Sequence record: ON286974
Length of the DNA stretch: 64,000 nt
Reading direction: 5' to 3' (one strand)
Origin: Escherichia phage W115
Each line of letters begins with the position of its first letter. Position 1 is the stretch's first letter. A program made the position numbers and the translations under genes. The notes beneath the pieces are model-generated. The model had not been told where the DNA came from. It made no database searches and worked only from the letters and a program-made list of their open reading frames with translations. This document shows, piece by piece, positions 2,168 to 44,518 of the stretch.

Positions 2168-3670
2168 ATGCAAGATATTAAAATTCACTTTCTGAACTAC
2201 TCCCATGTTCAAATTGAATGTAGCGATTCAATTTTATTAGAAATGCGAGATTATTTTAGTTTTGAAGTCGAGGGAGCGCGGTTTCAAAAAAGATTTAAGT
2301 ATGGTGGATGGGATGGGCGTATTCGTCTTTTAGATTACAACGGAAAGCTGCCAATCGGCCTAACTAAAACCGTGGGAATCTTCGCTAAAAATATGGGCTA
2401 TAGCGTATGGGTAGATCCTCGCTTATTCGAAAAAGAACAAGTTACAGAAGAAGAAATTACAAAATGGTGTAATGACTTAGAATTATATTCCGGTGCTAAC
2501 AGGATCACCCCGCATTGGTATCAATCAAAGGCCGTCTTTGAAGGTATTCATCATAAACGCCGTATGTTAGTTTTGCCTACGTCCGCTGGTAAATCTGCGA
2601 TTGCTTGTATGTTGTCTCGTTGGTACTTAGAGAACTACGAAGGGAAAGTGTTGATCATCGTTCCTACCACGTCGCTAGTGCTGCAAATGCGTGATGACTT
2701 TGTTGATTATCGCCAGTTTCCTTATGAAGCAATTCATACTATCATGAGCGGTACTAGTAAACACGTAGGTGATCGCCTGATCGTTGTTAGTACGTGGCAA
2801 TCTGCATGTAAACAACCTCGTGAGTGGTTCCAACAATTCGGGATGGTTATTGTTGACGAATGTCATAAAGCCACTGCTAAAAACCTGCTAAACATCGTTA
2901 CTGATATGGATCATTGCCAATTTAAGATCGGCATGACTGGTTCCCCTCGTGACGGGAAAGCTAACATGATGCAGTATGTCGGGCTTTTCGGTGATATTTC
3001 TAAGATCGTGAGTATTGACCGCCTGATGGAAGAAGGTCAGGTGACAAAACTGAAAATTAACTGTCTTTTCCTTCGTTATACCGATGAGGAATGTAGCGCG
3101 GTTAAGGGGCGAGAATATGCGGAAGAGATCAAGTATATTACGTCTAACCCACGACGAAATAAGTTTGCTTGTAATTTGGCGCTAAAACTCGCTAAGAAGG
3201 GCGAAAACGTATTCCTGATGTTCCGCAATACTAAGCACGGAAAACTTATGTATGACGCGTTACAGAAGGTACACGACAAGGTTTATTATATTGACGGTGG
3301 AGTTAAGACAGAAGAACGTGATGAATTTAAGAAAATGGCGGAGGGTGACACCGGGATCATTTGTGTTGCGTCTTATGGTGTGTTCTCTACTGGTGTTTCA
3401 ATTAAGAATTTGCACCATGTTATTTTCGGTCATCCAGTGAAGGAATCAACTATCGTTCGTCAGAGTATCGGTCGTGCATTGCGCAAACATGGTTCTAAGG
3501 ATATTGCAACGGTCTGGGATCTTATAGATCATCTGGCGGTGAAGACAAAGAGCAAGAATGCTAAGAAACAGTTTAGTCACCTTAATTATGCTCTTAAACA
3601 TGCCCTTGAAAGAATAAAAATTTACAACACCGACCGATTTGAATATGTCACGAAAACCATCGAGATTTAA
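2168..3670 (+). CDS. uvsW: UvsW DNA/RNA helicase
   Basis: Strong similarity to T4 UvsW along the length (MQDIKIHF..., LPTSAGKS Walker A, DECH box, VWDLIDH); track ORF begins at an upstream GTG, ATG at 2168 matches the T4 N-terminus. Confidence 0.9.
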   Translation: MQDIKIHFLNYSHVQIECSDSILLEMRDYFSFEVEGARFQKRFKYGGWDGRIRLLDYNGKLPIGLTKTVGIFAKNMGYSVWVDPRLFEKEQVTEEEITKWCNDLELYSGANRITPHWYQSKAVFEGIHHKRRMLVLPTSAGKSAIACMLSRWYLENYEGKVLIIVPTTSLVLQMRDDFVDYRQFPYEAIHTIMSGTSKHVGDRLIVVSTWQSACKQPREWFQQFGMVIVDECHKATAKNLLNIVTDMDHCQFKIGMTGSPRDGKANMMQYVGLFGDISKIVSIDRLMEEGQVTKLKINCLFLRYTDEECSAVKGREYAEEIKYITSNPRRNKFACNLALKLAKKGENVFLMFRNTKHGKLMYDALQKVHDKVYYIDGGVKTEERDEFKKMAEGDTGIICVASYGVFSTGVSIKNLHHVIFGHPVKESTIVRQSIGRALRKHGSKDIATVWDLIDHLAVKTKSKNAKKQFSHLNYALKHALERIKIYNTDRFEYVTKTIEI

Positions 3671-4211: not shown

Positions 4212-4619
4212 TTAGCGACCAGATTCCAGCATACGCAATTCTATAGCATTCTTGATCGCAAAGCCACGAGATTTAACGATATCAAGTGCGCGACCAGCGA
4301 AATCCATTACCATCTGGTAATATGCAATTTTCGTATCAAGCGGTAAGATCTCGTCGTCTGCTGCCATGACAACTTTCAATTCTGATTTCTCATATTCAGC
4401 ACGACACCAGTCATCACTACGGTTAGTGTAAAAGTCAAGACGATTTTTCATAGCCTTTTTCTTTTTAGCCTCAAGAGCAATCGTCTCTCTTTTCGCCTCG
4501 CTGTAAATCCTTAACCACTTTGAGTATACTACCGGATTATTCAGCGCCTCCCATTGCAACTTAGTCGCATCGATCTTCATGTCAGCTTCTAATTGTTCTT
4601 TCAAATCGTTTAGGTCCAT
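4212..4619 (-). CDS. uvsY: UvsY recombination mediator
   Basis: 135 aa; clear similarity to T4 UvsY (LQWEALNN..YSKWL, KSRGFAIK). Confidence 0.85.
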   Translation of the reverse strand: MDLNDLKEQLEADMKIDATKLQWEALNNPVVYSKWLRIYSEAKRETIALEAKKKKAMKNRLDFYTNRSDDWCRAEYEKSELKVVMAADDEILPLDTKIAYYQMVMDFAGRALDIVKSRGFAIKNAIELRMLESGR

Positions 4620-4666
4620 AATATCCCCTTATTCACACTAAGACCTATATCATATCACACACAAAA

Positions 4667-5053
4667 TCACTTTGCAAGTCTTATGCGTAGTTGTTCAAGA
4701 TCATCTGGGTTATCTATTACTGAAAAGTAGATTGATACTATGATTGAGTTATCGTCGTACTGCGGAGTTACTTCTACTGTCAGGTTTCGGACCCGTGGTT
4801 CATAGTTTCGGATCGCCTCATTGATGTTTTTTGATAAGGTATCCACCGTCAGTGGGTTCATGTTCTCAAACAGTGATTTATTGAGATCGCATCCAAACAG
4901 TGGATCAAATGGACGAGATCCCTTGCGAGTAGTCACGATCAGTAGAATAGAATCTTTAACCGCTTTAATCCCTATGTTCTTTTTAACGTCGTTATTCCAC
5001 GATCTGGATATATTGAGATCCAAATCAGTATACATCTGATTAATAGTTGCCAT
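4667..5053 (-). CDS. 25: baseplate wedge protein gp25
   Basis: Similarity to T4 gp25 (TTRKGSRPFDP.FGCDL, RNYEPR, FSVIDNPDD); start re-assigned to ATG at 5053 with GAGG RBS. Confidence 0.85.
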   Translation of the reverse strand: MATINQMYTDLDLNISRSWNNDVKKNIGIKAVKDSILLIVTTRKGSRPFDPLFGCDLNKSLFENMNPLTVDTLSKNINEAIRNYEPRVRNLTVEVTPQYDDNSIIVSIYFSVIDNPDDLEQLRIRLAK

Positions 5054-5761: not shown

Positions 5762-6532
5762 ATGAATATTATCCGAATAAAACTACCGGAAGGTGTGCAG
5801 AGATTTAAACCATTCACGGTAAAAGATTATAGAGATTTCCTTCTGGTGTCAACTGAAATTAAGATGAATCCAGAAGAAGAACAAACGATTCTTGATGAGC
5901 TATTAGAAGAAATATATCCAGACGTAGATCCGGCATTTCGTGAATATATTTTCCTGAATGTCTTTACTAGTTCAATTGGTAAAACTAAGATACCGCTTTG
6001 TTTTACTTGCCCGACTTGCAACAAAGAAAGAAGAATGTTGCTTAACTTACAGGTTGAAGCACTAAAACCAATCGTTCTAGAGGCCGCAGGGCTTAAAATA
6101 ACTTTCCGGTATGTTAAACCATCAACCGACTATGCAAAAACGTTTCTGGATGCGATAGAGCGTGTATCTGATGGTATTAATGACTATCTATGGACTGAAT
6201 TGCCGGAAGAAGTTAGAGAACAGGTTATCGATTCAATCTCATTTTCTGAATTTGAAGAAGTTGTTAAGCAGATGCACACAATCAAGATCGAACAAAAGAT
6301 ATCTTGTTGTGAGAGTCATGACCTGAAATACATAGGTCTTCTTCCATTATTCAAATTGTTGTTGAATCCAGATGAGTTATTCATCTTTTATCGAATAAAC
6401 CATCTATTGGCAAAATCAAATTATTCTATCAGTGATCTTATGGACATGTTACCCGTCGAGAGAAACATTGCACTGACACTGGTCGAGAAAGACGTAAAAG
6501 AGGCAAACAATGCAAAGAACGGGGTTTCCTAA
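5762..6532 (+). CDS. 51: baseplate hub assembly protein gp51
   Basis: 256 aa; first gene of the conserved 51-27-28-29-48-54 block; CxxC pairs. Confidence 0.65.
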   Translation: MNIIRIKLPEGVQRFKPFTVKDYRDFLLVSTEIKMNPEEEQTILDELLEEIYPDVDPAFREYIFLNVFTSSIGKTKIPLCFTCPTCNKERRMLLNLQVEALKPIVLEAAGLKITFRYVKPSTDYAKTFLDAIERVSDGINDYLWTELPEEVREQVIDSISFSEFEEVVKQMHTIKIEQKISCCESHDLKYIGLLPLFKLLLNPDELFIFYRINHLLAKSNYSISDLMDMLPVERNIALTLVEKDVKEANNAKNGVS

Positions 6533-40443: not shown

Positions 40444-40471
40444 TAAAAAAAGCCTCCCCGAAGGAAGGCTT
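40444..40471 (-). terminator. rho-independent terminator downstream of gene 32
   Basis: Hairpin agcctccc-cgaa-ggaaggct with U-run. Confidence 0.55.
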
Positions 40472-40480
40472 TAAAATTCA

Positions 40481-41455: not shown

Positions 41456-41485
41456 TATTCCTTCTTTTGATTGATTTACTAGACT

Positions 41486-41513
41486 ATTATACAGATTTAA
41501 ATTTACTTGTCAA
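41486..41513 (-). promoter_or_regulatory. sigma70-type promoter upstream of gene 32 (TTGACA-16-TATAAT)
   Basis: Read on minus strand; overlaps the 3' end of gene 59. Confidence 0.5.
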
Positions 41514-42199: not shown

Positions 42200-42469
42200 T
42201 TAAATATCGAGAGTGTTGGTCGGTTCGTCGATCACTCCCTTCCTGAGCGTTCTATTTACTATACATTCTTGTGTGATCTTGTCAATAATGGACACCGGAA
42301 TATACTTCTGATAGTGACCATATTCGATAGAGTTTTCCTCTACAAACTGCGTTGTCGCTTCAAGATAAGTCAATCCCTCTTCAACAACCAGTTTTTCGAT
42401 TGCAAGACCGTTTGCTGTTTTATTCGCGGCTTTTACCGCATGTTCATTAAGCATTGAACACCCGATCAT
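42200..42469 (-). CDS. 33: gp33 late transcription co-activator
   Basis: 89 aa; LTYLEATTQFVEENSI matches T4 gp33 core. Confidence 0.7.
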   Translation of the reverse strand: MIGCSMLNEHAVKAANKTANGLAIEKLVVEEGLTYLEATTQFVEENSIEYGHYQKYIPVSIIDKITQECIVNRTLRKGVIDEPTNTLDI

Positions 42470-42722
42470 AGAGTTCTACCGCTTCGTCGCGTTCTGCTTC
42501 GAAGGTTTCGCGCTGTTGCTGGTGATACAGTTTAAACAGAATGCCCCACATTTTACCATCTACGCCTAATTCTTCTTTAGCACGCTGTTTGATCTCTTTG
42601 ATCTTATCGCCATATGCTTCTTGAATGGTTTTCTGATCGCTGGCTTCTTTAATCAGTTGTGCCAGGGTATTTCCGTGTACATTTTCGTCAAATACTACTT
42701 TTTCTTTTTTCTGTTCAGTCAT
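42447..42722 (-). CDS. dsbA: DsbA double-stranded DNA-binding protein
   Basis: 91 aa; similarity to T4 DsbA (ELGVDGKM, LYH, FEAE..E.VELYD.VF). Confidence 0.75.
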   Translation of the reverse strand: MTEQKKEKVVFDENVHGNTLAQLIKEASDQKTIQEAYGDKIKEIKQRAKEELGVDGKMWGILFKLYHQQQRETFEAERDEAVELYDRVFNA

Positions 42723-42726
42723 AATA

Positions 42727-43326
42727 TTAACCCTCTTTAGTAATTAATTGAAAACCACGTTCAGCTTTTGATATTTCGCTAGGACTTAAATCGTCACCAA
42801 CATATTCTAGCATCATTTCTCGGATAATGTCAAGTGCTTTTTCATCACCTGATTTTAACTCGAACTCAAGTTCATAATGAGCAGTGTCGCCCAATCCTTC
42901 GCCTACTTTGCCATAATAGAAAGTGTCTTTGCACATTTCCACTATACCACAACCCATATCTAGAGTCAATGACTTGCGATATGTCATTACTTGCATTATT
43001 GTAGTGATATAGTCGGAGTTTACCCCTAGACTATCAATAAAATGGACGAACTCATCCCAATTTGAAAATGTCATTTCCTCGCGGTTGAATAGTCCAGATT
43101 CATTATCACCCATTTTGACCATGATCTCTGATTTTCTACAGTCAAGTCGTGCATAAATTCCTTTTTGACGTAGCGCATGATCTTCGGTATCATAATAAAA
43201 TTCGTGTTTTAATATGTTATCTCGGTCTAAGAGATTGTACCCGTCATACATTACCACCCACAAATCACAGATGGTTTCGACGCCAATTTGTGAGTGTGCA
43301 TAGTATTTTAATTCAAGTTCTTTCAT
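42727..43326 (-). CDS. CYTH-like (triphosphate tunnel metalloenzyme) domain protein
   Basis: 199 aa; N-terminal ELELK (ExExK) motif and C-terminal YELEFELK acidic motif typical of CYTH/CyaB/ThTPase; inserted between dsbA and rnh. Confidence 0.45.
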   Translation of the reverse strand: MKELELKYYAHSQIGVETICDLWVVMYDGYNLLDRDNILKHEFYYDTEDHALRQKGIYARLDCRKSEIMVKMGDNESGLFNREEMTFSNWDEFVHFIDSLGVNSDYITTIMQVMTYRKSLTLDMGCGIVEMCKDTFYYGKVGEGLGDTAHYELEFELKSGDEKALDIIREMMLEYVGDDLSPSEISKAERGFQLITKEG

Positions 43327-43336
43327 GTGTCAACCC

Positions 43337-44284
43337 TTAGAACTCACCAATTTTCTGTAACATTTTAACTAACGCATTTGTTACAAAATAGTTATAAATT
43401 TTACCGCGTGGTGCTGGTTTAGATTTCTCCCATGCTAACAAAATTTCATATTCGATGTTATCAGGAATAAATTCAAAATCAATAAGTTCGCGGTTTTCGT
43501 CAAAGCGTCGTGCTTCTTCCTCTGTCATCAAAGACTTTGGATCTTCGGCATCGAAAATTTGCTCTAACCATTTGGTTGCAATTGGTTTAGCTCGTTCTCC
43601 TTCCAGTCGTGAGATAATGAAATCACTACGGCACTTGATCGAAGCTACACCGTCTTTTGCGTCACCCTTAACACATTTTACCATAAGGTCTTTGTAAGGG
43701 CTACCATATTTGCATTTCTTCCATGCTTTCTGTACTGGTGCCCACTGTTTCACATTTTTGTATTTGTGCAACTGTGTGTAGTCACCATCGCCGGAGTTGA
43801 TTAGCACCTGGCGACCTTCTACAGAAAACTTTTTAGTTAATACAGCGATTATATCATCCGCTTCAACTTTGTCAACCTTAATAACGTGATAAGGCATGTT
43901 CTCTTTAAACTCTTCGGTGATCTTATTGATCGCAGCAAAGATCATCTCCCAATCACGCGGATCTGCGTCTCGTTTTTCCTTACGGTTGCGTTTATAGTAA
44001 GGTGCGATATCACGTCGCCAGTAACCTTTGCTTGAATCAAAGGCAAGTACCGTAATTGGGTATTGCTCTTTGAATTTTGTCATATTATAACGCATGGTGT
44101 CAAGAATAAGATGACGAATCATGCCTTCATTAATAGGATCTTCCGGTTTAAAGGTATGCGAGATAGTAGCAATCATAAGCTGCGACATATCAATCAAATG
44201 CACACCTTCCGGCAGTTTATCTTCTGGATCATCGAAGAAATCATTAAGTGTAGCGGTAGTTTTTGTAAATGGGTTATACGTCAT
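43337..44284 (-). CDS. rnh: RNase H / 5'-3' flap exonuclease
   Basis: 315 aa; FEN-type N-terminus (HLIDMSQL), position before gene 34 as in T4. Confidence 0.75.
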   Translation of the reverse strand: MTYNPFTKTTATLNDFFDDPEDKLPEGVHLIDMSQLMIATISHTFKPEDPINEGMIRHLILDTMRYNMTKFKEQYPITVLAFDSSKGYWRRDIAPYYKRNRKEKRDADPRDWEMIFAAINKITEEFKENMPYHVIKVDKVEADDIIAVLTKKFSVEGRQVLINSGDGDYTQLHKYKNVKQWAPVQKAWKKCKYGSPYKDLMVKCVKGDAKDGVASIKCRSDFIISRLEGERAKPIATKWLEQIFDAEDPKSLMTEEEARRFDENRELIDFEFIPDNIEYEILLAWEKSKPAPRGKIYNYFVTNALVKMLQKIGEF

Positions 44285-44286
44285 AA

Positions 44287-44472
44287 TTAAGTTCTCTCCA
44301 CTCTCACAACAACATATTCGCCAAACGAGTTAGATACTTCACGATCATACCCGTATTTCTCCATAACTCGCAGAATTGCATTGTTTAATTCGGCACGGAA
44401 ATAATTGTAATCCTTATCAGGGATTCTGTCAACTACCCATTTTGCACCTTCTGACAAATCAACTTTAACCAT
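44287..44472 (-). CDS. hypothetical small protein (61 aa)
   Basis: Track ORF directly upstream of rnh. Confidence 0.4.
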   Translation of the reverse strand: MVKVDLSEGAKWVVDRIPDKDYNYFRAELNNAILRVMEKYGYDREVSNSFGEYVVVRVERT

Positions 44473-44510
44473 AATATATCATCCTCTTTTGTTTCTATCA
44501 AGCCTTATTT

Positions 44511-44518
44511 TATAAATA
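44511..44518 (+). promoter_or_regulatory. T4-type late promoter box TATAAATA upstream of gene 34
   Basis: Exact TATAAATA about 29 nt upstream of gp34 ATG; AAGGAG RBS. Confidence 0.5.

Follow-up and report, generated by a model that had tools for sequence, protein, structure and literature searches.

The rnh-dsbA junction of phage W115

The window analysed here is a stretch of 64,000 nt from Escherichia phage W115 (sequence record ON286974). A sequence-only reading of the window had pointed to a 199-aa ORF between rnh and dsbA, with an ELELK motif near the N-terminus and a YELEFELK motif toward the C-terminus, and had proposed a CYTH-like triphosphate tunnel protein. The ORF is found on the minus strand flanked by these two genes, and its translation carries ELELK at residues 3-7 and YELEFELK at residues 151-158. 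The gene and its direct neighbours are as follows:

43337-44284, minus strand: rnh (T4-type RNase H / 5'-3' exonuclease), upstream neighbour; Pfam RNaseH_C (2.6e-37) and 5_3_exonuc_N
42727-43326, minus strand: YgiF-type CYTH gene of the triphosphate tunnel metalloenzyme (TTM) group, 199 aa, ATG start, orthologue of RB49ORF244c
42447-42722, minus strand: dsbA (late-transcription dsDNA-binding protein), downstream neighbour; Pfam Phage_DsbA (5.4e-22)

The CYTH gene is separated from rnh by 10 nt and from dsbA by 4 nt. Downstream of dsbA, Pfam searches identified gp33, gp59 and gp32, all encoded on the minus strand. A Shine-Dalgarno-like AAGGG is located upstream of the CYTH start codon. An in-frame TGA lies two codons 5' of the ATG, and only Met-Lys precedes the ExExK motif; the TGA fixes the N-terminus and leaves no room for a longer form. 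We take the ORF for a genuine gene rather than a frame left open by chance, because it is found in 58 of 58 Krischvirus records, shows a dN/dS of 0.16 to 0.38 and matches phrog_14893 (3.9e-132), a PHROGs family annotated as "unknown function". NCBIfam and PADLOC searches gave no match for the protein.

Two other features of the region were noted. A 61-aa ORF (44287-44472, minus strand) between rnh and gene 34 belongs to phrog_3594 (unknown function, E = 2.6e-31). It is conserved in RB49 (ORF246c), Phi1, Skers and other phages, but in T4 this position is empty. The ORF is a second lineage-specific small gene of the same junction region. At the 59-32 junction, a gene of ~600 nt for an HNH homing endonuclease is present in phages Skers and G2494 (5802-6398 of locus L002 and 4298-4894 of locus L014, respectively). 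The window (41456-41509), RB49 and Phi1 have only a short spacer without the HNH gene, and T4 has the GIY-YIG endonuclease SegG.

Insertion and distribution of the CYTH gene

In the T4 genome dsbA adjoins rnh, as the earlier reading had stated. The same adjacency is found in Dhakavirus WG01, Bragavirus phiP4-3, Karamvirus CC31, Biquartavirus 44RR2.8t, Slopekvirus KP27 and Lasallevirus Acj61. Since rnh lies directly beside dsbA in seven other Straboviridae genera checked (T4's included), it was concluded that the CYTH gene is a lineage-specific insertion, in a junction that the family otherwise conserves. A tblastn search of 50,697 phage records found the protein in 58, every one of them a Krischvirus; two far more divergent relatives used as queries returned the same 58 records and no others. 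The ORF is intact in 57 of these 58 cultured genomes. Krischvirus phages such as RB49, Phi1 and ECD7 are 96-99% identical to this region, and a scan of IMG/VR returned only three near-identical Krischvirus loci.

Three uncultured T4-like contigs encode a more distant CYTH homolog (47%, 36% and 31% identical) directly 5' of dsbA-gene 33. Their dsbA and gp33 are 69-81% identical to those of the window, compared with 58% for T4 dsbA and 50% for T4 gp33. The presence of the homolog upstream of dsbA-gene 33 in these divergent contigs indicates that the insertion is old within the lineage. The CYTH-dsbA-33 order is seen in four further divergent lineages, with rnh confirmed immediately upstream in Skers and one of the uncultured contigs (L006) only. 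Because stand-alone CYTH genes from Proteobacteria (196-205 aa) are the nearest relatives outside the phages, we infer that an ancestor of the Krischvirus lineage would have taken the gene from such a proteobacterial source and placed it between rnh and dsbA.

Assignment to the YgiF lineage

The protein matches Pfam CYTH (PF01928) at residues 27-191 with 29.2 bits (cut-off 23.2, E = 1e-6). A single-sequence search of the PDB gave marginal matches only, and a family profile was needed to reach YgiF. With a profile built from 19 family members, E. coli YgiF (5a60) was the only convincing match (E = 4.5e-13, residues 2-196), aligned end to end with the YgiF tunnel domain. The AlphaFold2 model (pLDDT 93.8, pTM 0.87) predicts eight long strands and a terminal helix. 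The best 30 PDB fold matches to the model are TTM proteins except for a few Mediator Med18 subunits, so that the eight-strand tunnel fold proposed for this ORF is supported by structure prediction. YgiF is the closest relative by both sequence and fold, which places the protein in the lineage of the YgiF-type tripolyphosphatases. This lineage corresponds to 'cluster 1' in the SSN of Vogt et al. 2021 (PMC8233210).

An HMM search of 1.84 billion representative proteins found 3,368 relatives. In the best 150 of them two architectures predominate, stand-alone proteins (~200 aa) and CYTH-CHAD proteins (~500 aa). E-values below 1e-30 were obtained for three relatives only, which marks the phage clade as a narrow, divergent offshoot. 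Taken together with the active-site residues described below, we estimate a probability of roughly 70% that the gene encodes a catalytically competent, single-domain TTM of the YgiF lineage.

A role as RNA 5'-triphosphatase was also considered, in which the enzyme would act on pppRNA ends, either of the pppApC... primers removed by RNase H or of host or phage transcripts marked for decay. The gene lies immediately 3' of rnh in one apparent transcription unit, and TTM RNA triphosphatases of eukaryotic viruses are found among the distant fold matches. The Cet1-like RNA triphosphatase family (PF02940) was neither a profile match nor the closest fold match, and we regard this role as quite improbable.

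Active site and tunnel residues

An alignment to the family HMM served to compare active-site positions between the phage clade, 147 bacterial relatives and YgiF. The motifs that form the predicted active site are located as follows:

43306-43320, minus strand: ExExK motif (E3, E5, K7) on strand beta1; E3 and E5 correspond to YgiF E4 and E6 (metal 2)
43141-43155, minus strand: Y58-A-R60-L-D62 strand; R60 corresponds to the catalytic R56 of YgiF, D62 replaces YgiF R58 and Y58 occupies the aromatic position of thiamine triphosphatase (ThTPase)
42853-42879, minus strand: strand beta8, H150-Y-E152-L-E154-F-E156-L-K158; the YgiF counterparts are E160 (metal 1) for E154 and E162 (metal 2) for E156
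42754-42771, minus strand: SKAERG of the C-terminal plug helix, the SKAxRG hallmark of the YgiF lineage

In YgiF, E4, E6 and E162 bind metal 2, E160 binds metal 1, and R56 and K69 are catalytic (Martinez et al. 2015, PMC4641920). The equivalents of E4, E6, E160, E162, R56 and K69 in the phage protein are E3, E5, E154, E156, R60 and K71, all of them invariant. Equivalents of YgiF K8, R81, E83, R126, E139, E158, K189 and R192 are present as well. Among eight allele representatives, with identity down to 31%, these 14 residues vary little or not at all. The ExExK motif is invariant in the phage clade and likewise in 86-87 of the 147 bacterial relatives, namely those with an aligned stretch that covers the motif. 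In the plug helix, K187 is kept in 147/147 relatives and R190 in 132/147.

The pocket itself differs from that of the bacterial enzymes. Position 62 is Arg in 146 of 147 bacterial relatives and Asp or Asn in 5/5 phage-clade representatives. Other clade-specific residues at positions of tunnel parity are K40 (mostly Leu in the others), H150 (mostly Ile), Y58 (Ala, Gly or Ser), F80 (His) and T115 (Phe). Tunnel-facing positions were assigned here by strand parity in the DSSP string, not from coordinates. The W/YxRxR motif of ThTPase appears as YxRxD in the phage protein; its second Arg is missing, and the aromatic residue is found in 6/8 allele representatives, with Val or Ile at the position of Y58 in the two that diverge most. 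In thiamine triphosphatase, the aromatic residue at the equivalent position stacks on the organic moiety of the substrate (PMC8233210). We read this pattern as a catalytic core that would still be competent, combined with changes that would have remodelled the substrate pocket. The change from RxR to RxD removes a phosphate-binding Arg kept in 146/147 relatives, and the activity on PPPi could therefore be weak. A salt bridge between K40 and D62 was considered, which might compensate and preserve the tunnel charge.

Hydrolase versus cyclase

Three records (AV108, KMB43 and PHB13) in GenBank label the gene 'adenylate cyclase', and the class IV (CyaB-type) cyclases belong to the same Pfam family. 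An enzyme that makes cAMP to reprogramme the host was weighed as an alternative. Three signatures set the class IV adenylate cyclases apart from the hydrolases: an HF dipeptide separated from ExExK by four residues (HFxxxxExExK), a small residue at the position of the central beta3 Arg, and ExA instead of ExE (PMC8233210). In the phage protein, the HF motif is absent and both the central Arg (R60) and E154-x-E156 are retained. Since all three cyclase signatures fail, the protein falls into the hydrolase class by the criteria of PMC8233210. The cyaB equivalog TIGR00318 (NCBIfam) gave no match at E <= 1, and YgiF itself shows no cyclase activity (PMC3440374). The retained R60 and ExE, the missing HF and the lack of a TIGR00318 match speak against a cyclase identity; the chance that cAMP is the product is very slight. 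On the three failed signatures, the TIGR00318 result and the lack of cyclase activity in YgiF, the GenBank "adenylate cyclase" labels are very probably wrong. The CYTH assignment of the sequence-only reading, which had listed class IV adenylate cyclase among the candidates, is thus borne out by the above-threshold Pfam match and the YgiF profile match and narrowed to the YgiF type; its cyclase option is very improbable.

The protein is probably a Mg2+/Mn2+-dependent triphosphate phosphohydrolase. The mechanism proposed here is drawn from the conserved residues. A Mg2+/Mn2+-triphosphate complex would enter the tunnel, with E154 as its ligand at metal site 1. E3, E5 and E156 would bind the second metal, and this metal would activate a water molecule for attack on the terminal phosphate, with R60 assisting the leaving group. 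Hydrolysis of the terminal phosphoanhydride bond would yield PPi or X-PP plus Pi, with no cyclisation.

Tripolyphosphatase activity is a good prospect in vitro. As to the physiological substrate, free PPPi or short polyP and an organic (nucleotide-like) triphosphate carry equal weight in a joint estimate, each somewhat short of even odds, and some other substrate takes the smaller remainder. The uncertainty comes from the remodelling of the pocket relative to YgiF (R58 to D62, L36 to K40, I156 to H150 and G54 to Y58). Free PPPi or short polyP is favoured by the specificity of the closest characterised relative for PPPi and by the retained basic residues of the plug helix. It is disfavoured by the loss of the near-universal Arg, by the gain of an aromatic residue and a His in the pocket and by the ample PPPase activity of the host. 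In E. coli, inorganic pyrophosphatase provides abundant PPPase activity, which is not reduced in a ygiF knockout (PMC3440374), so a plain phage PPPase would seem redundant.

Divergence and allele replacement

Comparison of the window copy with related phages and with the three uncultured contigs (L006, L007 and L010) gave the following identities:

RB49: CYTH 83%, rnh 97%, dsbA 99%, gp33 100%, gp59 99.6%
Skers: CYTH 57%, rnh 97%, dsbA 100%, gp33 100%, gp59 98%
L006: CYTH 47%, rnh 81%, dsbA 81%, gp33 80%; gp59 not found
L007: CYTH 36%, dsbA 79%, gp33 79%
L010: CYTH 31%, dsbA 69%, gp33 80%

The CYTH gene is the fastest-evolving gene of its module, with a divergence 2 to 3.5 times that of its neighbours. 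Pairwise dN/dS of CYTH is 0.31-0.38 against divergent alleles and 0.16-0.21 against near-identical ones, compared with 0-0.24 for the comparably sized neighbours rnh, gp59 and gp32. Values up to 0.43 for orf246 and dsbA come from very short genes and are unstable. The divergence is unevenly distributed along the gene:

42880-43300, minus strand: variable segment (~residues 10-149), a trough of DNA identity between otherwise near-identical Krischvirus genomes
42727-42879, minus strand: constant 3' quarter (residues 150-199), with ~97-100% DNA identity to Skers

By sliding window, DNA identity in the variable segment is ~42-70% to Skers (~0.48-0.70 in 90-nt windows) and 77-90% to RB49. Outside the trough it is mostly 92-100%, including rnh, dsbA and gene 33; the exceptions are a patch at the rnh 3' end and an adjoining window of 0.86. 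The protein encoded by the constant 3' quarter is nearly identical across alleles of 56-58% identity. The sharp boundaries of the trough against Skers are the signature of allele replacement by recombination.

The patch at the rnh 3' end (~43410-43510, minus strand) shows 62-82% DNA identity to RB49, GEC-3S, Phi1 and Skers and is not seen in comparison with JK32; the rest of rnh is 94-100% identical. It looks like a second small mosaic segment.

Conservation follows the predicted tunnel. Over the eight allele representatives, entropy averages 0.64 bits at the strand residues that face the tunnel, 20 of 45 of which are invariant, compared with ~1.5 bits for outward-facing strand, helix and loop residues. 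Tunnel conservation together with a dN/dS below 0.4 indicates that the enzyme is under purifying selection. Of the 58 Krischvirus records, only that of phage G2494 (MK327935) has the gene disrupted: a frameshift of 1 nt close to codon 58 splits the orthologue (2501-3096 of locus L014) into two annotated ORFs. This may be a true pseudogene, with loss of the gene, or a sequencing error. The frameshifted copy and the high overall divergence could also be taken as signs of a remnant, in which the gene is decaying toward loss or its product has no catalytic activity and serves as a binding protein ('sponge'). That reading has very little going for it, as the metal-binding and catalytic residues are kept across alleles down to 31% identity, the tunnel lining is far more conserved than the remainder of the protein and the ORF is intact in all cultured genomes except G2494.

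The location within the core replication module had been taken as a sign of stable integration and not of an accessory gene. The gene is stably present in the lineage, but its fast divergence, the bounded replacement allele (in one phage) and the frameshifted copy (in one genome) amount to accessory-gene behaviour. In these comparisons it appears to behave as a host-interaction accessory gene and not as a component of the replication core. A kept enzyme with a fast-changing surface fits either a host-interacting accessory gene or relaxed constraint outside the tunnel.

Expression signals

One candidate promoter would read into the CYTH gene:

43848-43875, minus strand: sigma70-type site with perfect consensus inside rnh (TTGACA-16-TATAAT with TG; consensus scan only), candidate early promoter

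Sigma70-like sites upstream of the CYTH gene on the minus strand are located at 44501, 44432 and 43875 (consensus matches only). Between 40300 and 44900, 27 sigma70-type sites were found compared with 13.2 +/- 3.0 in shuffled sequence, nearly all on the coding (minus) strand. Three of the sites are perfect TTGACA-16-TATAAT matches (43875, 41513 and 40418), and the one at 41513 corresponds to the early promoter annotated upstream of gene 32 in RB49 and GEC-3S. No late promoter TATAAATA was found on the minus strand between 39000 and 46000; the sole T4-type late promoter motif TATAAATA in this interval is on the plus strand at 44511, 36 nt before gene 34. Because sigma70-like sites lie upstream and the minus strand shows no late promoter, early transcription of the CYTH gene, jointly with rnh, dsbA and gene 33, is plausible.

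A further site, TTGACA-18-TAGAAT with TG (42833-42804, minus strand), is found in the constant 3' quarter of the CYTH gene, oriented toward dsbA and gene 33. A functional promoter here could be part of the reason why this quarter keeps ~97-100% DNA identity to Skers, with an allele that is elsewhere only ~50-60% identical. A strong terminator-like hairpin (40449-40472, minus strand), with a 10-bp stem followed by a T run, is located just 3' of gene 32.

A possible role in host takeover

The pattern of divergence raises a further possibility, that the protein serves anti-defence or host takeover. The remodelled tunnel (D62, K40, H150 and Y58) would destroy a specific triphosphate-bearing nucleotide made by the host, such as an immune signal or its precursor, an alarmone (pppGpp, pppApp) or a toxic non-canonical NTP. 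Host factors able to sense or inhibit the enzyme would put pressure on its surface, which would respond by diversifying through allele swapping. This proposal would account for a CYTH protein at 31-57% identity, the fastest in its module, where dsbA and gp33 stay at 69-100%, and for the sharply bounded allele replacement in genomes that are otherwise mostly 94-100% identical. It is also consistent with the conserved tunnel and variable surface, with clade-specific pocket residues that include Y58 at the position where ThTPase stacks the organic moiety, with probable early expression, and with a host that already supplies PPPase activity. However, PADLOC shows no relation of the protein to any defence component, and the literature search gave no link. 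The dN/dS is below 1, the rapid divergence also fits relaxed constraint on a dispensable gene, and the plug-helix residues K187 and R190 are retained as in the PPPi-specific YgiF. We know of no triphosphate-linked defence signal that needs a TTM, which counts against an anti-defence role. We consider such a role unlikely, with better prospects than the RNA triphosphatase, cyclase or remnant readings. If it were true, a TTM would for the first time be implicated in phage-host conflict, and the phage protein could offer a lead to the substrate on which the YgiF family acts in the cell.

Prior annotation and significance

The domain assignment is not new. The GenBank record of RB49 carries the note "similar to P45267, P30871, HI1598, ygiF" for RB49ORF244c, and a CYTH domain match was listed for the RB49 orthologue by Nolan et al. 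2006 (PMC1524935). Some GenBank records name the gene "inorganic triphosphatase" or "adenylate cyclase". The assignment has been public since about 2003-2006, and the discovery is for this reason modest. A literature search found no functional or experimental study of a phage CYTH protein. The cyclase exclusion, the RxD variant, the conserved tunnel with a variable surface, the allele cassette and the undisturbed junction in seven genera may be new. The present analysis also allows correction of the "adenylate cyclase" labels that are spreading in Krischvirus GenBank records.

Even in E. coli, where a ygiF knockout keeps its cellular PPPase activity (PMC3440374), the physiological role of YgiF-type tunnel enzymes is poorly understood. 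A CHAD-less copy that has been kept for a long time, with the tunnel preserved, one Arg changed and the remainder diverging, suggests a substrate that matters in infection. The small size of the gene and the growth of these phages on E. coli K-12 and B make it a tractable entry to the biology of the family.

Comparison with known systems

Class IV adenylate cyclases (CyaB, YpAC-IV; PDB 2fjt, 3n10) share the Pfam family and the tunnel fold with the phage protein. The mammalian 25-kDa thiamine triphosphatase (PDB 3bhd, 5a64) has the TTM fold and the ExE hydrolase chemistry in common with it. W53 of ThTPase and Y58 of the phage protein are both aromatic and located two positions before the catalytic Arg.

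E. coli YgiF (PDB 5a60/5a61) is a CYTH-CHAD inorganic triphosphatase of 433 aa, whereas the phage protein has 199 aa, lacks CHAD and ends after the plug helix. The two share ~21-24% identity. YgiF R58 is replaced by Asp, and the tunnel residues L36, I156, G54, H79 and F124 of YgiF correspond to Lys, His, Tyr, Phe and Thr in the phage protein. The CHAD-less form of ~200 aa is also found in many bacterial relatives.

The stand-alone YgiF-like CYTH proteins of Proteobacteria (~196-210 aa; P0044, P0046 and H. influenzae HI1598) have the same single-domain architecture and length as the phage protein. Among the matches listed in the search of 1.84 billion proteins, they are its nearest non-phage relatives (E = 8e-25 and weaker). 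A scan of genome contigs with P0046 as query found nothing. When the query was an alignment of the bacterial relatives, the scan gave 80 proteobacterial loci, and stand-alone CYTH genes are common in Gamma- and Betaproteobacteria. The genes for P0044 and P0046, on the metagenomic bacterial contigs L008 and L011, are divergently oriented to a neighbouring PhoU-like/PHO4 phosphate-transporter pair and have an rsmD-like methyltransferase gene after them; this context points to a link with phosphate metabolism. The stand-alone bacterial proteins differ from the phage protein in their chromosomal contexts and in the canonical RxR, kept in 146/147 of them, where the phage protein has RxD.
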